IMG/VR virus record: IMGVR_UViG_3300036770_004732
Coordinates: 47,302-111,301 of that record
Origin: a virus
Length of the DNA stretch: 64,000 nt
Direction: 5' to 3' (one strand)
The notes below the pieces were generated by a model. It had not been told where the DNA came from and did not search any database. It was given only the letters and a program-made list of their open reading frames with translations. Positions within the stretch are counted from its first letter, which is position 1. Every line of letters begins with the position of its first letter. Of this stretch, positions 31,627 to 59,809 are shown piece by piece. Made by a program: the position numbers and the translations under genes.

Positions 31627-32055
31627 TTATTGGTGCTTTTGTAGGTATTTAATCATTTCTTCTAAAAGATTTGCATTGTCTCCAACTTGACCCAGAACCA
31701 TATTACAATTTCTACAAAGCAATTGCCTAACTTTACCTGTCTTATGGTCGTGGTCTACACACAATTTCTTCCATTTACCATCACCTTCACCTTTACAAAT
31801 AGCACAAACTCCATTCTGGTTCTTATACATTTCCTGATGTTCTTGAAGAGTTATACCATAATTCCTCTTCAAGTCATTATTTCGTGTTCGTTCTGGATTT
31901 GCTTGATGTCTTGCTTTTACTCTTGCCTTATCACATTCTTTACAAGCAGAGTGCCTCCTACCTGTTTTCTTATCACGCATATAAAACTCTGTAATCTGCT
32001 TTTCAACACCACAGGTCATACAGGTTCTATACAGGTCGGAGTATAGTTTAGTCAT
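31627..32055 (-). CDS. Endonuclease VII-family free-standing homing endonuclease (F-CphI-like position)
   Basis: CAIC...VDHDHKTGKVRQLLCRNCN; N-terminal Zn finger; directly downstream of psbA; TATAAATA at 32080-32087. Confidence 0.85.
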   Translation of the reverse strand: MTKLYSDLYRTCMTCGVEKQITEFYMRDKKTGRRHSACKECDKARVKARHQANPERTRNNDLKRNYGITLQEHQEMYKNQNGVCAICKGEGDGKWKKLCVDHDHKTGKVRQLLCRNCNMVLGQVGDNANLLEEMIKYLQKHQ

Positions 32056-32122
32056 TTCGTGCTTTCTTTCGTGCTTAAATATTTATAAAAAAAGGAACTC
32101 CGAAGAGTTCCCCTTTATTATA

Positions 32123-35000
<2,878 letters not shown>

Positions 35001-35029
35001 TTTACTTTAAAAAGAAATAAGTATGAGTA

Positions 35030-35122
35030 TAGGGATTACTCGTTTACTGATTTCCTTCACTACCCTCAAGTGAAGGTAAGATGAGGGATGCTTTACTTCT
35101 CATGATCCCGGTTAGAGAAGAC
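35030..35122 (-). ncRNA. structured psbA 5' leader (PhotoRC-II-like)
   Basis: Hairpins cttctc/gagaag and ccttcac/gtgaagg, ccctca/tgaggg pairing; directly upstream of phage psbA; family assignment from memory. Confidence 0.55.
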
Positions 35123-35135
35123 AACGTTAAGATTC

Positions 35136-47237: not shown

Positions 47238-47992
47238 TTTTCAAACCACCTTTTTCTCCATTTCTGACCACCGGCAAAATGACGAATAATTACATCATTT
47301 GGTTTAACATAATTAATCAAAAAATCACATCCGGATTCACCTGGAAGTTCAGTGACATTCCATTCTGTCGGTAAAAGTTGCACATTTTGATAAAGTTCTT
47401 CTAAAGAATAAACCGTCCAGTTATTCTTATCGGTGTGCCAACCAAAATTGGGAAGTTCCCAAAAAGGAATATCAGAATGTCTTTTAATACCGGCAAGAGA
47501 ATACCAAGATGCTTGATCATAAAAAACTTCCCAAAAACTACTATAAGTTCCAAATCTTTCATGAATAGTTAATTGATTATGAAGATTATTATATCTTTCT
47601 TCATCTACAATTAGATCAAACAATTTACGAGTCCAATCGTTTACGCGGACAGAATATGAACCCATACAATGAGTATTTCCAGAGTCAATAGAATAAGCAA
47701 AAGATTTTCCCTCATCTGGAACATATAACATGTCTCTTTTAACAATGGCCATATCCGCATCTAAACAAGTTAGAATATCACCTTCTTTAAGTGTTGATTT
47801 TAATAATTCCTGAACTTTAAACGGTTTAATCCACCCAACTTTACCTCTTACAGGATCCAATTTTTCAGTAATTTCAACATATTCGAATCCATGAATTTGA
47901 CAGTACTCTTTATTTCTCGGAGACATATAAGTCTCAAAGAATTCTTGTCTCCAATCTGGATAACTAGCAATAACCATTAAATATTTTTTCAT
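47234..47992 (-). CDS. GT34-like (GMA12/MNN10) glycosyltransferase
   Basis: NKEYCQIHGFEY, W.KP, LDAD, DQA and HFAG motifs. Confidence 0.75.
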   Translation of the reverse strand: MKKYLMVIASYPDWRQEFFETYMSPRNKEYCQIHGFEYVEITEKLDPVRGKVGWIKPFKVQELLKSTLKEGDILTCLDADMAIVKRDMLYVPDEGKSFAYSIDSGNTHCMGSYSVRVNDWTRKLFDLIVDEERYNNLHNQLTIHERFGTYSSFWEVFYDQASWYSLAGIKRHSDIPFWELPNFGWHTDKNNWTVYSLEELYQNVQLLPTEWNVTELPGESGCDFLINYVKPNDVIIRHFAGGQKWRKRWFEK

Positions 47993-53349: not shown

Positions 53350-53426
53350 TGTTATGTTTGAATTACTCAGATATTATAAGTGTTTGACTGAATTTAGTCA
53401 AGTGTGCCAGTGAAGTAACTGGCAAG

Positions 53427-53500
53427 TCGGGCATAGAGGATTTGAACCTCTGGCCTTTCCGCCCCAAACGGAACGCGCTACCAAACTGCGCTAATGCCCG
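53427..53500 (-). tRNA. tRNA-Pro(UGG)
   Basis: Cloverleaf; anticodon arm ttccg-tt-TGG-gg-cggaa. Confidence 0.95.
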
Positions 53501-53622
53501 AAGTGTTCTATTTGATGACAATTAGAACAAAGAACTTCACATTTATTTGCTTCTTTCTTTATACTTTCAAGACACATACTTTTTCTTACCATATCTGCGA
53601 CATTGTGTTTTTTGTCGCTAAG
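53491..53622 (-). pseudogene. C-terminal remnant of an HNH endonuclease
   Basis: LSDKKHNVADMV...IKKEANKCEVLCSNCHQIEHFGH-stop; no N-terminal half; stop lies inside the tRNA-Pro 5' end. Confidence 0.65.
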
Positions 53623-53667
53623 GCACAAGTGTAATATACCTCATAAGGGCATAACAGGGACTTGTGC
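53623..53667 (-). ncRNA. 45-nt hairpin element, copy 1
   Basis: gcacaagt/acttgtgc outer stem; homologous to 58745-58789. Confidence 0.55.
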
Positions 53668-56662: not shown

Positions 56663-58159
56663 TCAGAAAGTAAACTTCGCCTGAATTACACCACCAAAGT
56701 TATCGGTAGCATTACGGAAAGACTGGTTGTTGGAAACATAGAAGATCGCAGGAGTCACACTGATGTTGTCGCTCACACGATACTTATAGAATACTTCCCA
56801 CATCGTTGCGTTCGCAGGCAGTCCTTGAGCGTTGCCTGGTTGTCCCACAGCACCACCAAAAGAATTACCCTTTGCAAACACATCACTCCATTGAAGTCCA
56901 GTGAACCAAGACTGAGAGTTGGTAGCACCGTTTGCGTTAGGTAGAGGAGCACCACTCACATAGTTCCAACCATAAGCAGCAGAGATGGAAGGAACCCAAC
57001 CACTCTGCAGAGGTTGCCAGTAAGCATTCAGAGCATAACCATTTGAACCTTGTCCGTTGGTAAGAGCACCACTACCACCACCAAGAGCGTTGAAGGTGCG
57101 AACACGAGTGCCCCGAGTACCGTAACGATAACCGAAAGCAACACCCCAGTTAGGAGCTTTATAACCAATCTGAGCAAGAGTATTCAGTCCACCAGATTCA
57201 TTGAAGACACCAGTCTGACTGTTGTTACCGTTTTCGGCAACATAGTTCAAACCAGCAACGATTCCACCTTTCTTTCCAGGTTGAACATACTGAACGCCAA
57301 AACCAGCACCAGTTGCCTTGTTATAGACACCAGGAGCGCCAGCAACAGCAAAGAAGTCAAGAATTTCTGAGCGATATGCCGAAGGAATCCATGCCATCTC
57401 AGTGTTACGAACCAGAGCACCAGCAGTCAGAGTTACACCCTTGCTAACTGGGAACTGATAGTAAAGACGATCCAACCAAACATTGCTGTTAGTTCCAGTG
57501 CCTTGTGATTGTTCTGCCTTATCCAGTTTGAACAGAGAACGTGAAGAACCAAAAGGTTGAGCACTGAAGTTACCACTACGCAGACGGGTACGAAGCAAGT
57601 CCTTACCAGTGAACGAAGTATCAAAATTCAGACGGAGATCATAGTTGAAAGTTGTGTTTCCAGATTGGTTTCCGTTTGTGAGGTAAGCATTATTAACGCC
57701 ACCCAGAACAAAATTAACTTCACCTTTCAGTTTGGTTGTGGTGGAGAATTGTTGTGCTTCCAGAACACCAACTTTGGTTTCCAGACCATCAACACGACCT
57801 TTGAGAACTGCAAGTTCTGCTTGGAACTCGTTCATCAGACGACGAAGTTCATCGGTGACTTCAGAGACACGATCAAGGCAAGCATTCAAAAGTGCTGCTG
57901 CCTCAAAACGAGTCATTGCCTTACCACCACCAAAGGTGCCGTTAGGATAACCAGCAACGCAACCATAACGCTCTACGAGGTTGCTGAGTGCTTGATATGC
58001 CCAGTCGGTAGGACGAACATCAGAGAATTGAGTAATGCTTGTAACTTGACTCTCAGAGTATTGATTGACCGCACCCATATTAAGTTCTGCGGCATTCGCA
58101 GCAACAGGAGCAACCATACCCAGAGCAACAGGTGCAAGCATCAGTTGATTGAGTTTCAT
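56663..58159 (-). CDS. cyanobacterial outer-membrane porin (SomA/OprB-like with SLH domain)
   Basis: Signal peptide; QVTSITQFSDVRPTDWAYQAL..LVERYGC, FSTTTKL.GE and TSFTGKDLL motifs; terminal Phe. Confidence 0.93.
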   Translation of the reverse strand: MKLNQLMLAPVALGMVAPVAANAAELNMGAVNQYSESQVTSITQFSDVRPTDWAYQALSNLVERYGCVAGYPNGTFGGGKAMTRFEAAALLNACLDRVSEVTDELRRLMNEFQAELAVLKGRVDGLETKVGVLEAQQFSTTTKLKGEVNFVLGGVNNAYLTNGNQSGNTTFNYDLRLNFDTSFTGKDLLRTRLRSGNFSAQPFGSSRSLFKLDKAEQSQGTGTNSNVWLDRLYYQFPVSKGVTLTAGALVRNTEMAWIPSAYRSEILDFFAVAGAPGVYNKATGAGFGVQYVQPGKKGGIVAGLNYVAENGNNSQTGVFNESGGLNTLAQIGYKAPNWGVAFGYRYGTRGTRVRTFNALGGGSGALTNGQGSNGYALNAYWQPLQSGWVPSISAAYGWNYVSGAPLPNANGATNSQSWFTGLQWSDVFAKGNSFGGAVGQPGNAQGLPANATMWEVFYKYRVSDNISVTPAIFYVSNNQSFRNATDNFGGVIQAKFTF

Positions 58160-58789: not shown

Positions 58790-58828
58790 TCTATCACTTT
58801 TATATATTAGACTAATTTTGAGTTTATG

Positions 58829-59299
58829 TCAAGTCCAAAGATTATGGTCATATTCCCAATGACAGTTTGGACACAAAGGCATTATATTTTCTTTTGAATT
58901 TATAACACTAATCATAATATCTTCACTAAAAGAAGATATTGGTTTAATGTGAGCAATTTCTATATGTTTATTATAACCACACTTTGTACATTCAGTAAAT
59001 CCAAGTTTTTTAGCAAAAGATCTTGCTCGTGTTCTAACTAATGCGAAAGCAGAAGATCTATGATGTTTTTCATATATCGCTTCTCTAAGCGTCATATCTC
59101 TTACTTCTCTTTCTTTCATCCATAACAAATAATGTTCTTTACAGCGAGAACGATTTGCTGTTATTGCTTCTCCACAATCAATACATTTATGTTCTGGTTT
59201 TCTTTTTGGTGCTATTTTATTATTATATGAGGCAGCACAACTTCTCCCACAAAACTTTGGATTTTTTGTTTCTCCTTCACAGAATAAACATTTATTCAT
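58829..59299 (-). CDS. free-standing HNH endonuclease with N-terminal Zn fingers
   Basis: KFCGRSC and CTKCGY..EIAHIKP...NIMPLCPNCHWEYD motifs; TATAAATA at 59322-59329. Confidence 0.9.
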   Translation of the reverse strand: MNKCLFCEGETKNPKFCGRSCAASYNNKIAPKRKPEHKCIDCGEAITANRSRCKEHYLLWMKEREVRDMTLREAIYEKHHRSSAFALVRTRARSFAKKLGFTECTKCGYNKHIEIAHIKPISSFSEDIMISVINSKENIMPLCPNCHWEYDHNLWT

Positions 59300-59349
59300 A
59301 ATCGAACCTTTTAGTTATTATTATTTATAATACTCTAAGGTTCAAAAAG

Positions 59350-59625
59350 CGTCTCAGGAGGGACTCGAACCCCCGACCAACTGCTTAGCTTACCACTACG
59401 AATTTCTCCGCCATTTCTGTTTGTGGTCTGGACTTTCTCTTTACCATATCCCAAAGGACTTAGGCACTTCCCGTAAAGTCTCTACACCTTCATCTAACGA
59501 TGCTTGGCTCGGGATTGCCATTTTAAAGGGTTCCCCGAATTTGAGAAGTTACATTCATAAAGTTTCCTTTATGACGCTCCATTTATGTTTAAGGCAGATG
59601 CTCTATTCCACTGAGCTACTGAGAC
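59350..59625 (-). tRNA. tRNA-Arg(UCU), split: exons 59591-59625 and 59350-59388
   Basis: Exons (35 + 39 nt) rejoin to a cloverleaf: acceptor gtctcag/ctgagac, anticodon loop ct-T|CT-aa, T-loop ttcgagt. Confidence 0.9.
59389..59590 (-). mobile_element. group I intron (202 nt, ORF-less) in the tRNA-Arg anticodon
   Basis: Follows exon U, ends in G; core AAATTCGGGGAA, GGCAATCCCGAGCCAAGC, GTGTAGAGACT and AAGAGAAAGTCC. Confidence 0.9.
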
Positions 59626-59723: not shown

Positions 59724-59809
59724 AGAGACCCTCCTGTTTGTGCTTCTATGAGAGGCATGGAGGGGGAGGGTCTTATGGAAGGGTTGGAACCTCGCCTGCC
59801 CATGAGAGT

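Follow-up and report, generated by a model that had tools for sequence, protein, structure and literature searches.

We analysed a 64,000-nucleotide (nt) window (positions 47,302 to 111,301) of IMG/VR record IMGVR_UViG_3300036770_004732, a 111-kb viral contig that is ~48% complete. Its transfer RNA (tRNA) cluster holds two neighbouring elements, a group I intron without an open reading frame (ORF) that splits the tRNA-Arg(UCU) gene and a free-standing gene for an HNH endonuclease. Together they make a candidate pair for collaborative homing, and we consider it probable that they act in this way. The contig belongs to a T4-like cyanomyovirus whose closest isolate is the freshwater Synechococcus phage S-SRM01, and the host phage of the cassette is an uncultured, T4-like, freshwater cyanophage.

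Collaborative homing has been proposed as a route that leads from ORF-less introns and free-standing nucleases to mobile introns (PMC3984707). It was described in cyanophage S-PM2 for the psbA group I intron without an ORF and F-CphI, an enzyme of the Endo VII family (Zeng, Bonocora and Shub 2009; PMC6083498), and, as summarised in a review, in a T7-like phage for an HNH enzyme and the intron of its DNA polymerase gene (Bonocora and Shub 2009, reviewed in PMC3984707). A 2014 review counts two phage systems, both in protein-coding genes (PMC3984707).

The pair described here would be a selfish two-part mobile unit lodged in a cyanophage tRNA cluster. Its first part would be a free-standing HNH homing endonuclease from a family specialised on tRNA-Arg(UCU) genes. 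During mixed infection, the enzyme would cut uninterrupted tRNA-Arg(UCU) alleles with an xCTGC/GCAGT anticodon arm, in or beside the anticodon loop, and repair on the donor genome would bring the intron into the cut allele, in many cases together with the HNH gene. The donor's own recognition site would be split by the intron, leaving its tRNA gene uncut, and RNA splicing would restore the tRNA.

Anatomy of the split tRNA-Arg gene and its HNH neighbour

The tRNA-Arg(UCU) gene, the intron and the HNH gene all lie on the minus strand. With introns allowed, ARAGORN calls a split tRNA-Arg(UCU) gene at 59350-59625, with a 202-nt intron after position 35. Exon 1 (nt 1-35, 59591-59625), delimited by ARAGORN, the sequence and an alignment of related loci, ends in ...CUGCCUU with U34 as its last base; exon 2 (39 nt, 59350-59388), delimited by ARAGORN and the sequence, begins with C35 and does not encode the CCA. 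The predicted spliced junction is CTGCCTT-CTAAGCAG, and, once joined, the exons share 94-96% identity with phage tRNA-Arg genes that have no interruption. Both ARAGORN without introns and the Rfam tRNA model overlook this gene, which matters for annotation.

The intron (59389-59590) gives a full-length match to the Rfam group I model RF00028 (59407-59601, 64.6 bits against a gathering score of 50), can be aligned from P1 to P9, and has no ORF in its 202 nt, in agreement with the initial annotation, which had read it as an ORF-less intron. Its insertion point in the anticodon loop, between U34 and C35, is that of tRNA-Leu(UAA) introns. The CCUU of the 5' exon faces a conserved GGAG in the intron, forming P1, in which a U.G pair marks the 5' splice site, and the last intron base is a G (59389; ...GGUAAG, then exon CUAAG). 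We describe the intron as being of tRNA-Leu(UAA)-like type, a description made without formal assignment to subgroup IC3. The core is conserved in more than 40 loci and the exons are intact, which speaks for a functional intron whose splicing would yield the mature tRNA.

The HNH gene (58829-59299) is intact and encodes 156 amino acids (aa), with matches in Pfam and PHROGs. Its ATG lies 50 nt past the tRNA discriminator base, and a T4-type late promoter box, TATAAATA, stands between the two, so that the layout first noticed, a split tRNA-Arg followed after about 50 nt by an HNH gene with its own late promoter, was borne out. The same tRNA[intron]-HNH layout was found in more than 40 environmental contigs with differing flanks, which means that the pairing is not a chance neighbourhood.

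The tRNA-Arg(UCU) gene as home of the HNH family

HNH-based scans of viral and metagenome contigs gave ~150 loci, a good many of them near-duplicates that come from related samples (L numbers below designate these and other loci). Among close relatives (at least 55% identity), the HNH gene is nearly always located either 45-57 nt after a tRNA-Arg(UCU) gene or 1-9 nt before one, and the tRNA-Arg(UCU) gene is the sole sequence common to both layouts. At L234:137-1195, a single uninterrupted tRNA-Arg with an ATTCT arm has an HNH gene on either side; the two belong to different clades and are 73% and 89% identical to that of the window. More remote homologues, from Felix O1, Erwinia phage Ep030 and cyanophage MA01, likewise lie within tRNA clusters. 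This distribution is the signature of a homing endonuclease family with the tRNA-Arg(UCU) gene as its home.

The gene is optional among relatives, being missing in S-SRM01, L084 and L095. At the corresponding place, the uninterrupted tRNA-Arg(UCU) gene of S-SRM01 runs directly into the sequence that lies beyond the HNH gene in the window, a clean empty site for both intron and HNH. The HNH gene was not found in S-SRM01 or in the isolate cyanophages searched, the nearest cyanophage matches being ~30% identical. The cassette is seen in at least eight different tRNA-order backgrounds, and identity profiles show a sharp block running from the tRNA 5' end to ~80 nt past the HNH stop, beyond which the flanks are 30-76% identical. 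Many further contigs contain only C-terminal HNH stubs or an internally deleted copy, degenerate forms in keeping with the life cycle of homing endonuclease genes.

Intact HNH genes and the state of the anticodon arm

We counted the states of neighbouring tRNA-Arg alleles on unique full-length HNH haplotypes, typing intron-bearing alleles by their 3' arms and by ARAGORN intron calls. Beside an intact HNH gene, the commonest arm, xCTGC/GCAGT, is interrupted in the anticodon loop in 20/20 haplotypes: the order tRNA[intron]-HNH accounts for 17, the order HNH-tRNA[intron] for two, and the remaining one has a 45-nt insert. GCATC or ACCGC arms were seen in another four alleles with the intron. All of the uninterrupted neighbours (26/26) have other arms, namely TCCGA, ATTCT, GCCTG, GCGCA, CGGAA, TCGCT, TCGGC or CGTTC. 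The uninterrupted xCTGC arm exists on at least 120 viral contigs, and no HNH gene was found nearby in any of the 80 such alleles sampled, 53 of which have at least 600 nt on both sides. Fisher's exact tests, in which shared descent is uncorrected, gave p = 3e-14 ([[20,0],[5,53]]) and p = 2e-10 ([[20,0],[4,26]]). Intron and HNH gene thus co-occur beyond independence. The initial annotation had treated joint distribution across related contigs as a mark of the pair; this held insofar as the association exceeds independence (Fisher p <=2e-10), and has to be qualified in that the two elements are separable and linkage by descent explains part of it.

A link of function might nevertheless be absent, two selfish elements having simply piled up in a permissive tRNA cluster, with common descent and sampling accounting for the association. 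Homing endonuclease genes are known to gather in the tRNA clusters of large phages, the window has a second HNH remnant next to tRNA-Pro, and many of the loci are near-duplicates. We find this explanation improbable, because the rule holds in two HNH clades of opposite layout and in a pair of loci with identical HNH proteins. In that pair, L233 and L234 encode the same downstream HNH protein and agree fully over 700 nt downstream, and differ in carrying an intron-split TCTGC allele and an uninterrupted ATTCT allele, respectively. On a quick HNH tree, of which we used only the starred branches, intron state changes at least three times. The two clades, these state changes and the L233/L234 pair reduce the concern over shared descent. 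The spread of the cassette over its tRNA-order backgrounds also speaks against mere accumulation, as does the fact that intron and HNH have recombined repeatedly and that an uninterrupted xCTGC arm beside HNH never resulted.

Scars and inserts one base from the intron site

A few loci carry other interruptions at nearly the same position. L270:1050-1660 contains the complete 5' half of an ACTGC-type tRNA-Arg, which ends in ...CTGCCTTC, one base past the intron site. The 3' half does not follow; instead, 11 nt further on stands a cassette that brings a tRNA-Arg of its own, with a TCCGA arm, and an HNH gene (58% identity). In L270, then, the resident tRNA gene is broken at the anticodon and replaced by that of the cassette.

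In addition, inserts of ~44-46 nt are found in the tRNA-Arg(UCU) anticodon loop exactly between C35 and U36 (CTGCCTTC^...^TAAGCAG), again one base from the intron site (L025/L028:2833-2953, L247-L249, L340:5789-5905, L349 near 2336 and L374 near 9802). They comprise two unrelated sequences at the same site, one of which has a T-arm-like hairpin. On the 45-nt insert, Rfam matched only the surrounding tRNA, the fold is unremarkable (z = -2), and comparison by eye with the group I intron revealed no evident similarity. The L270 scar and the inserts, independent rearrangements, map within one base of the intron site, in agreement with a putative target in the anticodon loop.

Other items were seen directly after the CTGCCTTC of a tRNA-Arg-like 5' half: a TATAAATA box with a ribosome-binding site (RBS) and an ORF in L323 (near 5672), group-I-like RNA in L324/L358, and other inserts in L321/L382, L332/L341 and L329. 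This suggests that the tRNA-Arg anticodon may be an insertion hot spot, as seen by a scan whose pattern fixed the position of the junction.

Where the HNH enzyme would cut

The HNH enzyme could also cut elsewhere in the tRNA-Arg(UCU) region, at a junction between a tRNA end and its flank or at a conserved motif, with the intron providing no protection. The intron would then be an independent passenger, mobilised in trans by co-conversion within ~300 bp of the break, and insertion of the HNH gene or flank polymorphisms would destroy the site. We rate this as rather unlikely, if by no means negligible. The HNH gene always abuts a tRNA end, at the short spacings given above; it thrives beside uninterrupted alleles, and the intron exists without it. 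There is also precedent in T4, where SegB recognises a T-arm motif (PMC2330249) and mobE mobilises a neighbouring intron in trans (PMC2790892).

The resident alleles themselves argue otherwise. Several HNH-less uninterrupted alleles, located in the same Arg-Asn-Thr-Gly-Val clusters, match the joined exons of the window except in the D and T loops. Resident intron-bearing alleles do not differ from HNH-less alleles in the acceptor stem, anticodon arm or T arm. A site wholly within one exon would therefore be cut in the phage's own genome, and inside the tRNA gene the intron is the only candidate for immunity. A flank junction fares no better as a common target, since the HNH gene is inserted 5' of the tRNA in one layout and 3' of it in the other; the intron site alone is disrupted in the two layouts alike. 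Cutting elsewhere would also leave unexplained why the xCTGC arm is never uninterrupted beside HNH, and why L270 bears a scar at the anticodon. Collaborative homing, with a cut predicted in or next to the anticodon loop and immunity probably conferred by the intron, accounts for these observations.

Origin and independent movement of the intron

In sequence, the intron shares 74-75% identity with tRNA-Leu(UAA) introns from megaphage LR756501 and from Saprospiraceae metagenome-assembled genomes (MAGs), which are inserted at the same site after ...CUU. An exact search for the core pattern in 185,579 representative cellular genomes returned no copy in tRNA-Arg and four in tRNA-Leu; diverged copies could escape such an exact match. 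On this evidence, the intron's kin appear to be bacterial tRNA-Leu(UAA) introns. The ~74% identical group I introns in tRNA-Leu(UAA) genes are those of L079 (LR756501:190243-190533, an unannotated 735-kb megaphage record) and of four Saprospiraceae MAGs (L311-L314).

Within the phage loci, intron and HNH gene have partly separate histories. Between the window and L023, the intron differs at one of ~210 positions and the exons are near-identical, as against a synonymous divergence (dS) of 0.89 in the adjoining HNH gene and only 62-69% identity in tRNA-Asn, tRNA-Thr and tRNA-Gly. More generally, lineages with HNH genes that have diverged to a dS of ~0.9 share an intron and exon unit of at least 99% identity. 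L013 and L029 provide a contrast, their intron divergence being equal to their HNH divergence. Intron divergence divided by HNH divergence gives values between 0.03 and 1.1, with Poisson p <=0.002 at the low end. A near-identical intron unit beside diverged HNH genes means that the tRNA::intron unit moves horizontally on its own. It has spread recently among lineages that retained old, diverged HNH genes, which shows that intron and HNH are not an obligate unit. This recent spread is consistent with homing by short conversion tracts, and also with selection for an allele immune to all HNH variants.

A more tentative proposal goes further. The tRNA-Arg(UCU) anticodon loop may be the site of a conflict between nuclease and target, from which alleles escape in at least three ways, by an intron shield, by compensatory changes in the anticodon stem, or by the ~45-nt insert between C35 and U36. 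The intron would then be mainly an immunity shield, positively selected and swept near-unchanged through lineages with long-diverged HNH genes; a working tRNA would require removal of the ~45-nt insert, and some cassettes would go as far as to disrupt the resident tRNA gene while supplying a tRNA-Arg in its place. We hold this to be possible and somewhat doubtful. Natural populations contain the empty site, the intron alone, the HNH gene alone with a putatively immune allele, both elements together, decayed HNH genes, and a broken tRNA with its replacement, and would thus preserve every stage of the pair's history.

Several observations weigh against collaborative homing as set out above. The gap between intron and HNH gene is only 40-50 nt, so that much of the co-occurrence is simple linkage, and the Fisher tests ignore shared descent. 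The elements are separable: the intron occurs without HNH (L084, L095) and beside dead HNH genes (L096, L099), and the HNH gene also stands next to uninterrupted tRNA-Arg with other anticodon stems. The near-identical intron beside deeply diverged HNH genes indicates that it often moves without HNH, where strict co-homing predicts otherwise. An uninterrupted CCTTCTAAG core is present beside an intact HNH gene in three HNH-then-tRNA loci, L033 and L035 (arm TCGGC) and L037 (CGTTC); if the loop is the site, recognition must therefore involve the stem as well. Loci without HNH (L340, L349) likewise carry the ~45-nt insert. Finally, the cut site is deduced solely from distributions and from one scar locus, whose HNH is 58% identical to that of the window, and the scan that yielded the other junctions after CTGCCTTC had that position fixed in its pattern.

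The HNH enzyme and its expression

The HNH ORF matches Pfam HNH_2 (9e-8) and HNH (1e-4) as well as PHROG HNH families. The protein consists of two N-terminal Cys4-type zinc-ribbon-plus-helix modules and a C-terminal HNH domain, in which the motif (catalytic His, structural Asn, metal-binding His) is represented by H117, N138 and H147 and zinc-binding CxxC pairs stand at 104/107 and 143/146. These seven residues (H117, N138, H147, C104, C107, C143, C146) are invariant in 16 relatives. The AlphaFold model has a predicted local distance difference test (pLDDT) score of 88, and the best Foldseek matches of the C-terminal domain, which bear on a putative beta-beta-alpha-metal fold, are the Gme HNH nickase (probability 0.97) and McrA, both weak (E 0.065 against a line of 0.001); a profile search against the sequences of solved structures gave no significant match. 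Across relatives, the ratio of nonsynonymous to synonymous divergence (dN/dS) of the HNH gene is 0.07-0.15 over dS up to ~1, which shows that the protein is maintained by selection. With its catalytic residues invariant and its dN/dS low, the enzyme looks active.

The protein in L041-L048 and L263-L273 has a different composition. In this clade, residues 67-156 are near-identical to the window protein (~85% at the DNA level), the N-terminal third is another one, and so is the 5' leader, which has no hairpin. This looks like a domain swap, and all members stand beside uninterrupted tRNA-Arg alleles.

Upstream of the gene in the window, the leader forms a predicted regulatory hairpin (59302-59345, minus strand; minimum free energy -13.8 kcal/mol, z = -5.0) with 5' arm UUGAACCUU. 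The late promoter box (59322-59329, minus strand) sits within its loop and upper stem, and its 3' arm covers an AAGG Shine-Dalgarno sequence 7-10 nt ahead of the AUG. The hairpin arms covary among the loci of HNH relatives, and TATAAATA is invariant. On transcripts that read through from tRNA promoters, the hairpin would mask the RBS; transcripts from the late promoter would lack its 5' arm, leaving the RBS free, and the HNH gene would thus be translated only late in infection. A late promoter combined with an RBS-masking hairpin has been described for T4 I-TevI and segB and for Aeh1 mobE (PMC2988022).

At the other end of the gene, a sigma-70-type promoter read from the sequence (TTGACA-17-TAATAT, 58804-58832, minus strand) overlaps the HNH stop with its -35 box and faces the downstream tRNA-Asn/Thr/Gly. 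Many loci with the cassette share 80-93% identity over the ~80 nt that follow the HNH stop, a stretch missing in S-SRM01; this promoter thus appears to travel with the cassette. Promoters at the end of endonuclease genes are known for T4 seg and mob genes (PMC2988022). As a separate matter, we compared the hairpin and late-promoter region by eye with the joined anticodon arm for an I-TevI-style operator, and dropped the idea because the TCTAAG common to both in the window is not conserved in other loci.

Late expression and a dN/dS that is low for a purely selfish gene could also indicate an HNH enzyme that serves the phage, in host DNA degradation or in recombination or processing of the tRNA cluster, and not in homing. 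We regard such a role as very improbable. The gene is missing from S-SRM01 and from the isolate cyanophages searched, where the nearest protein is ~30% identical; many copies are truncated or internally deleted; and presence and absence are patchy and clean at a single site.

Comparison with known homing systems

The window also contains a pair of the S-PM2 kind. Its psbA gene is split by three group I introns (32213-32478, 32881-33119 and 34618-34834, minus strand; Rfam), and a free-standing Endonuclease_7 gene follows it (31627-32055, minus strand; Pfam 7.9e-26), an F-CphI-like layout as in S-PM2. The parallel drawn at the outset between this arrangement and that of the tRNA-Arg locus was therefore sound. 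Within this stretch (31627-35134, minus strand), the intron regions further include a LAGLIDADG-type ORF (34118-34570) and a 219-aa ORF (32972-33631) with a zinc-finger match below the Pfam cutoff.

Like the F-CphI/psbA pair, the tRNA-Arg locus consists of a group I intron that has no ORF, in a conserved gene, and relatives carry alleles devoid of both intron and endonuclease. It differs in that the host gene is a tRNA, that the nuclease is an HNH protein with zinc-ribbon modules and not of the Endo VII type, and that we infer the cleavage at the intron site; moreover, this HNH family would have a second route to immunity, through changed anticodon stems, and has two layouts.

T4 SegB, a free-standing GIY-YIG homing endonuclease located between tRNA-Arg and tRNA-Ile (PMC2330249; PMC2988022), resembles the HNH enzyme in several ways. 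Both are free-standing endonucleases next to tRNA-Arg in a T4-like tRNA cluster, under late-promoter and hairpin control, with neighbouring tRNA genes carried along and related phages that lack the nuclease. However, SegB works without an intron and recognises the T-psi-C stem-loop, a target disfavoured for the HNH enzyme. SegB had been invoked as a precedent for cutting in tRNA regions, and this is correct as far as it goes; its recognition of a T-arm motif (PMC2330249) is the part that does not carry over. A SegB-like T-arm target was rejected here, given that the T arm, acceptor stem and anticodon arm of the resident intron-bearing alleles equal those of HNH-less alleles. Only HNH families match the nuclease gene, which is devoid of the GIY-YIG domain of the T4 Seg type; the nuclease is SegB-like in layout and regulation, yet it is not a Seg protein.

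Other systems offer partial likenesses. T4 mobE promotes trans homing of the nrdB intron, whose I-TevIII is defunct (PMC2790892), and illustrates how a free-standing HNH enzyme beside an intron-containing gene can mobilise an intron unable to move alone; unlike the intron studied here, the T4 intron retains its dead endonuclease ORF, and the target is a protein gene. A tRNA-fMet intron was reported to have its own endonuclease targeting the anticodon region (Bonocora and Shub 2001, as cited in PMC3984707). The small core and the position after U34 (5' exon ...CUU) are shared with tRNA-Leu(UAA) introns, whereas the host here is a phage tRNA-Arg(UCU) and the nuclease lies outside the intron. In the literature we covered on phage tRNA introns with homing nucleases, consisting of reviews and the psbA and T4 cases, we found no such pair in a phage tRNA gene.

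If true, this example in a tRNA gene would extend the collaborative homing model to RNA genes and explain the spread of a cellular-type tRNA intron among phages. Environmental cyanophage tRNA clusters would then be shaped by conflict between selfish elements. It would also offer a small and tractable system, with a 156-aa enzyme, 75-bp targets, and natural alleles that are presumably sensitive, immune or intron-protected.

Other features of the tRNA cluster

Three further features of the cluster lie outside the cassette, all on the minus strand. An abiF RNA motif (Rfam RF03085, 44.7 bits) stands directly upstream of tRNA-Ile in the window (59728-59764). In S-SRM01 and most related loci, it is found directly upstream of tRNA-Arg(UCU), and it also occurs at L001:3757-3793; it is a conserved small structured element heading this tRNA group. 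A 45-aa ORF (53491-53628) without Pfam match has ...CEVLCSNCHQIEH at its end and represents the C-terminal remainder of another HNH gene. Overlapping the beginning of tRNA-Pro (53426-53500), it has the look of a second, decayed nuclease of this cluster. Finally, the cluster includes a 498-aa porin-like gene with a signal peptide (56663-58159), whose homologue in S-SRM01 is annotated as a porin.

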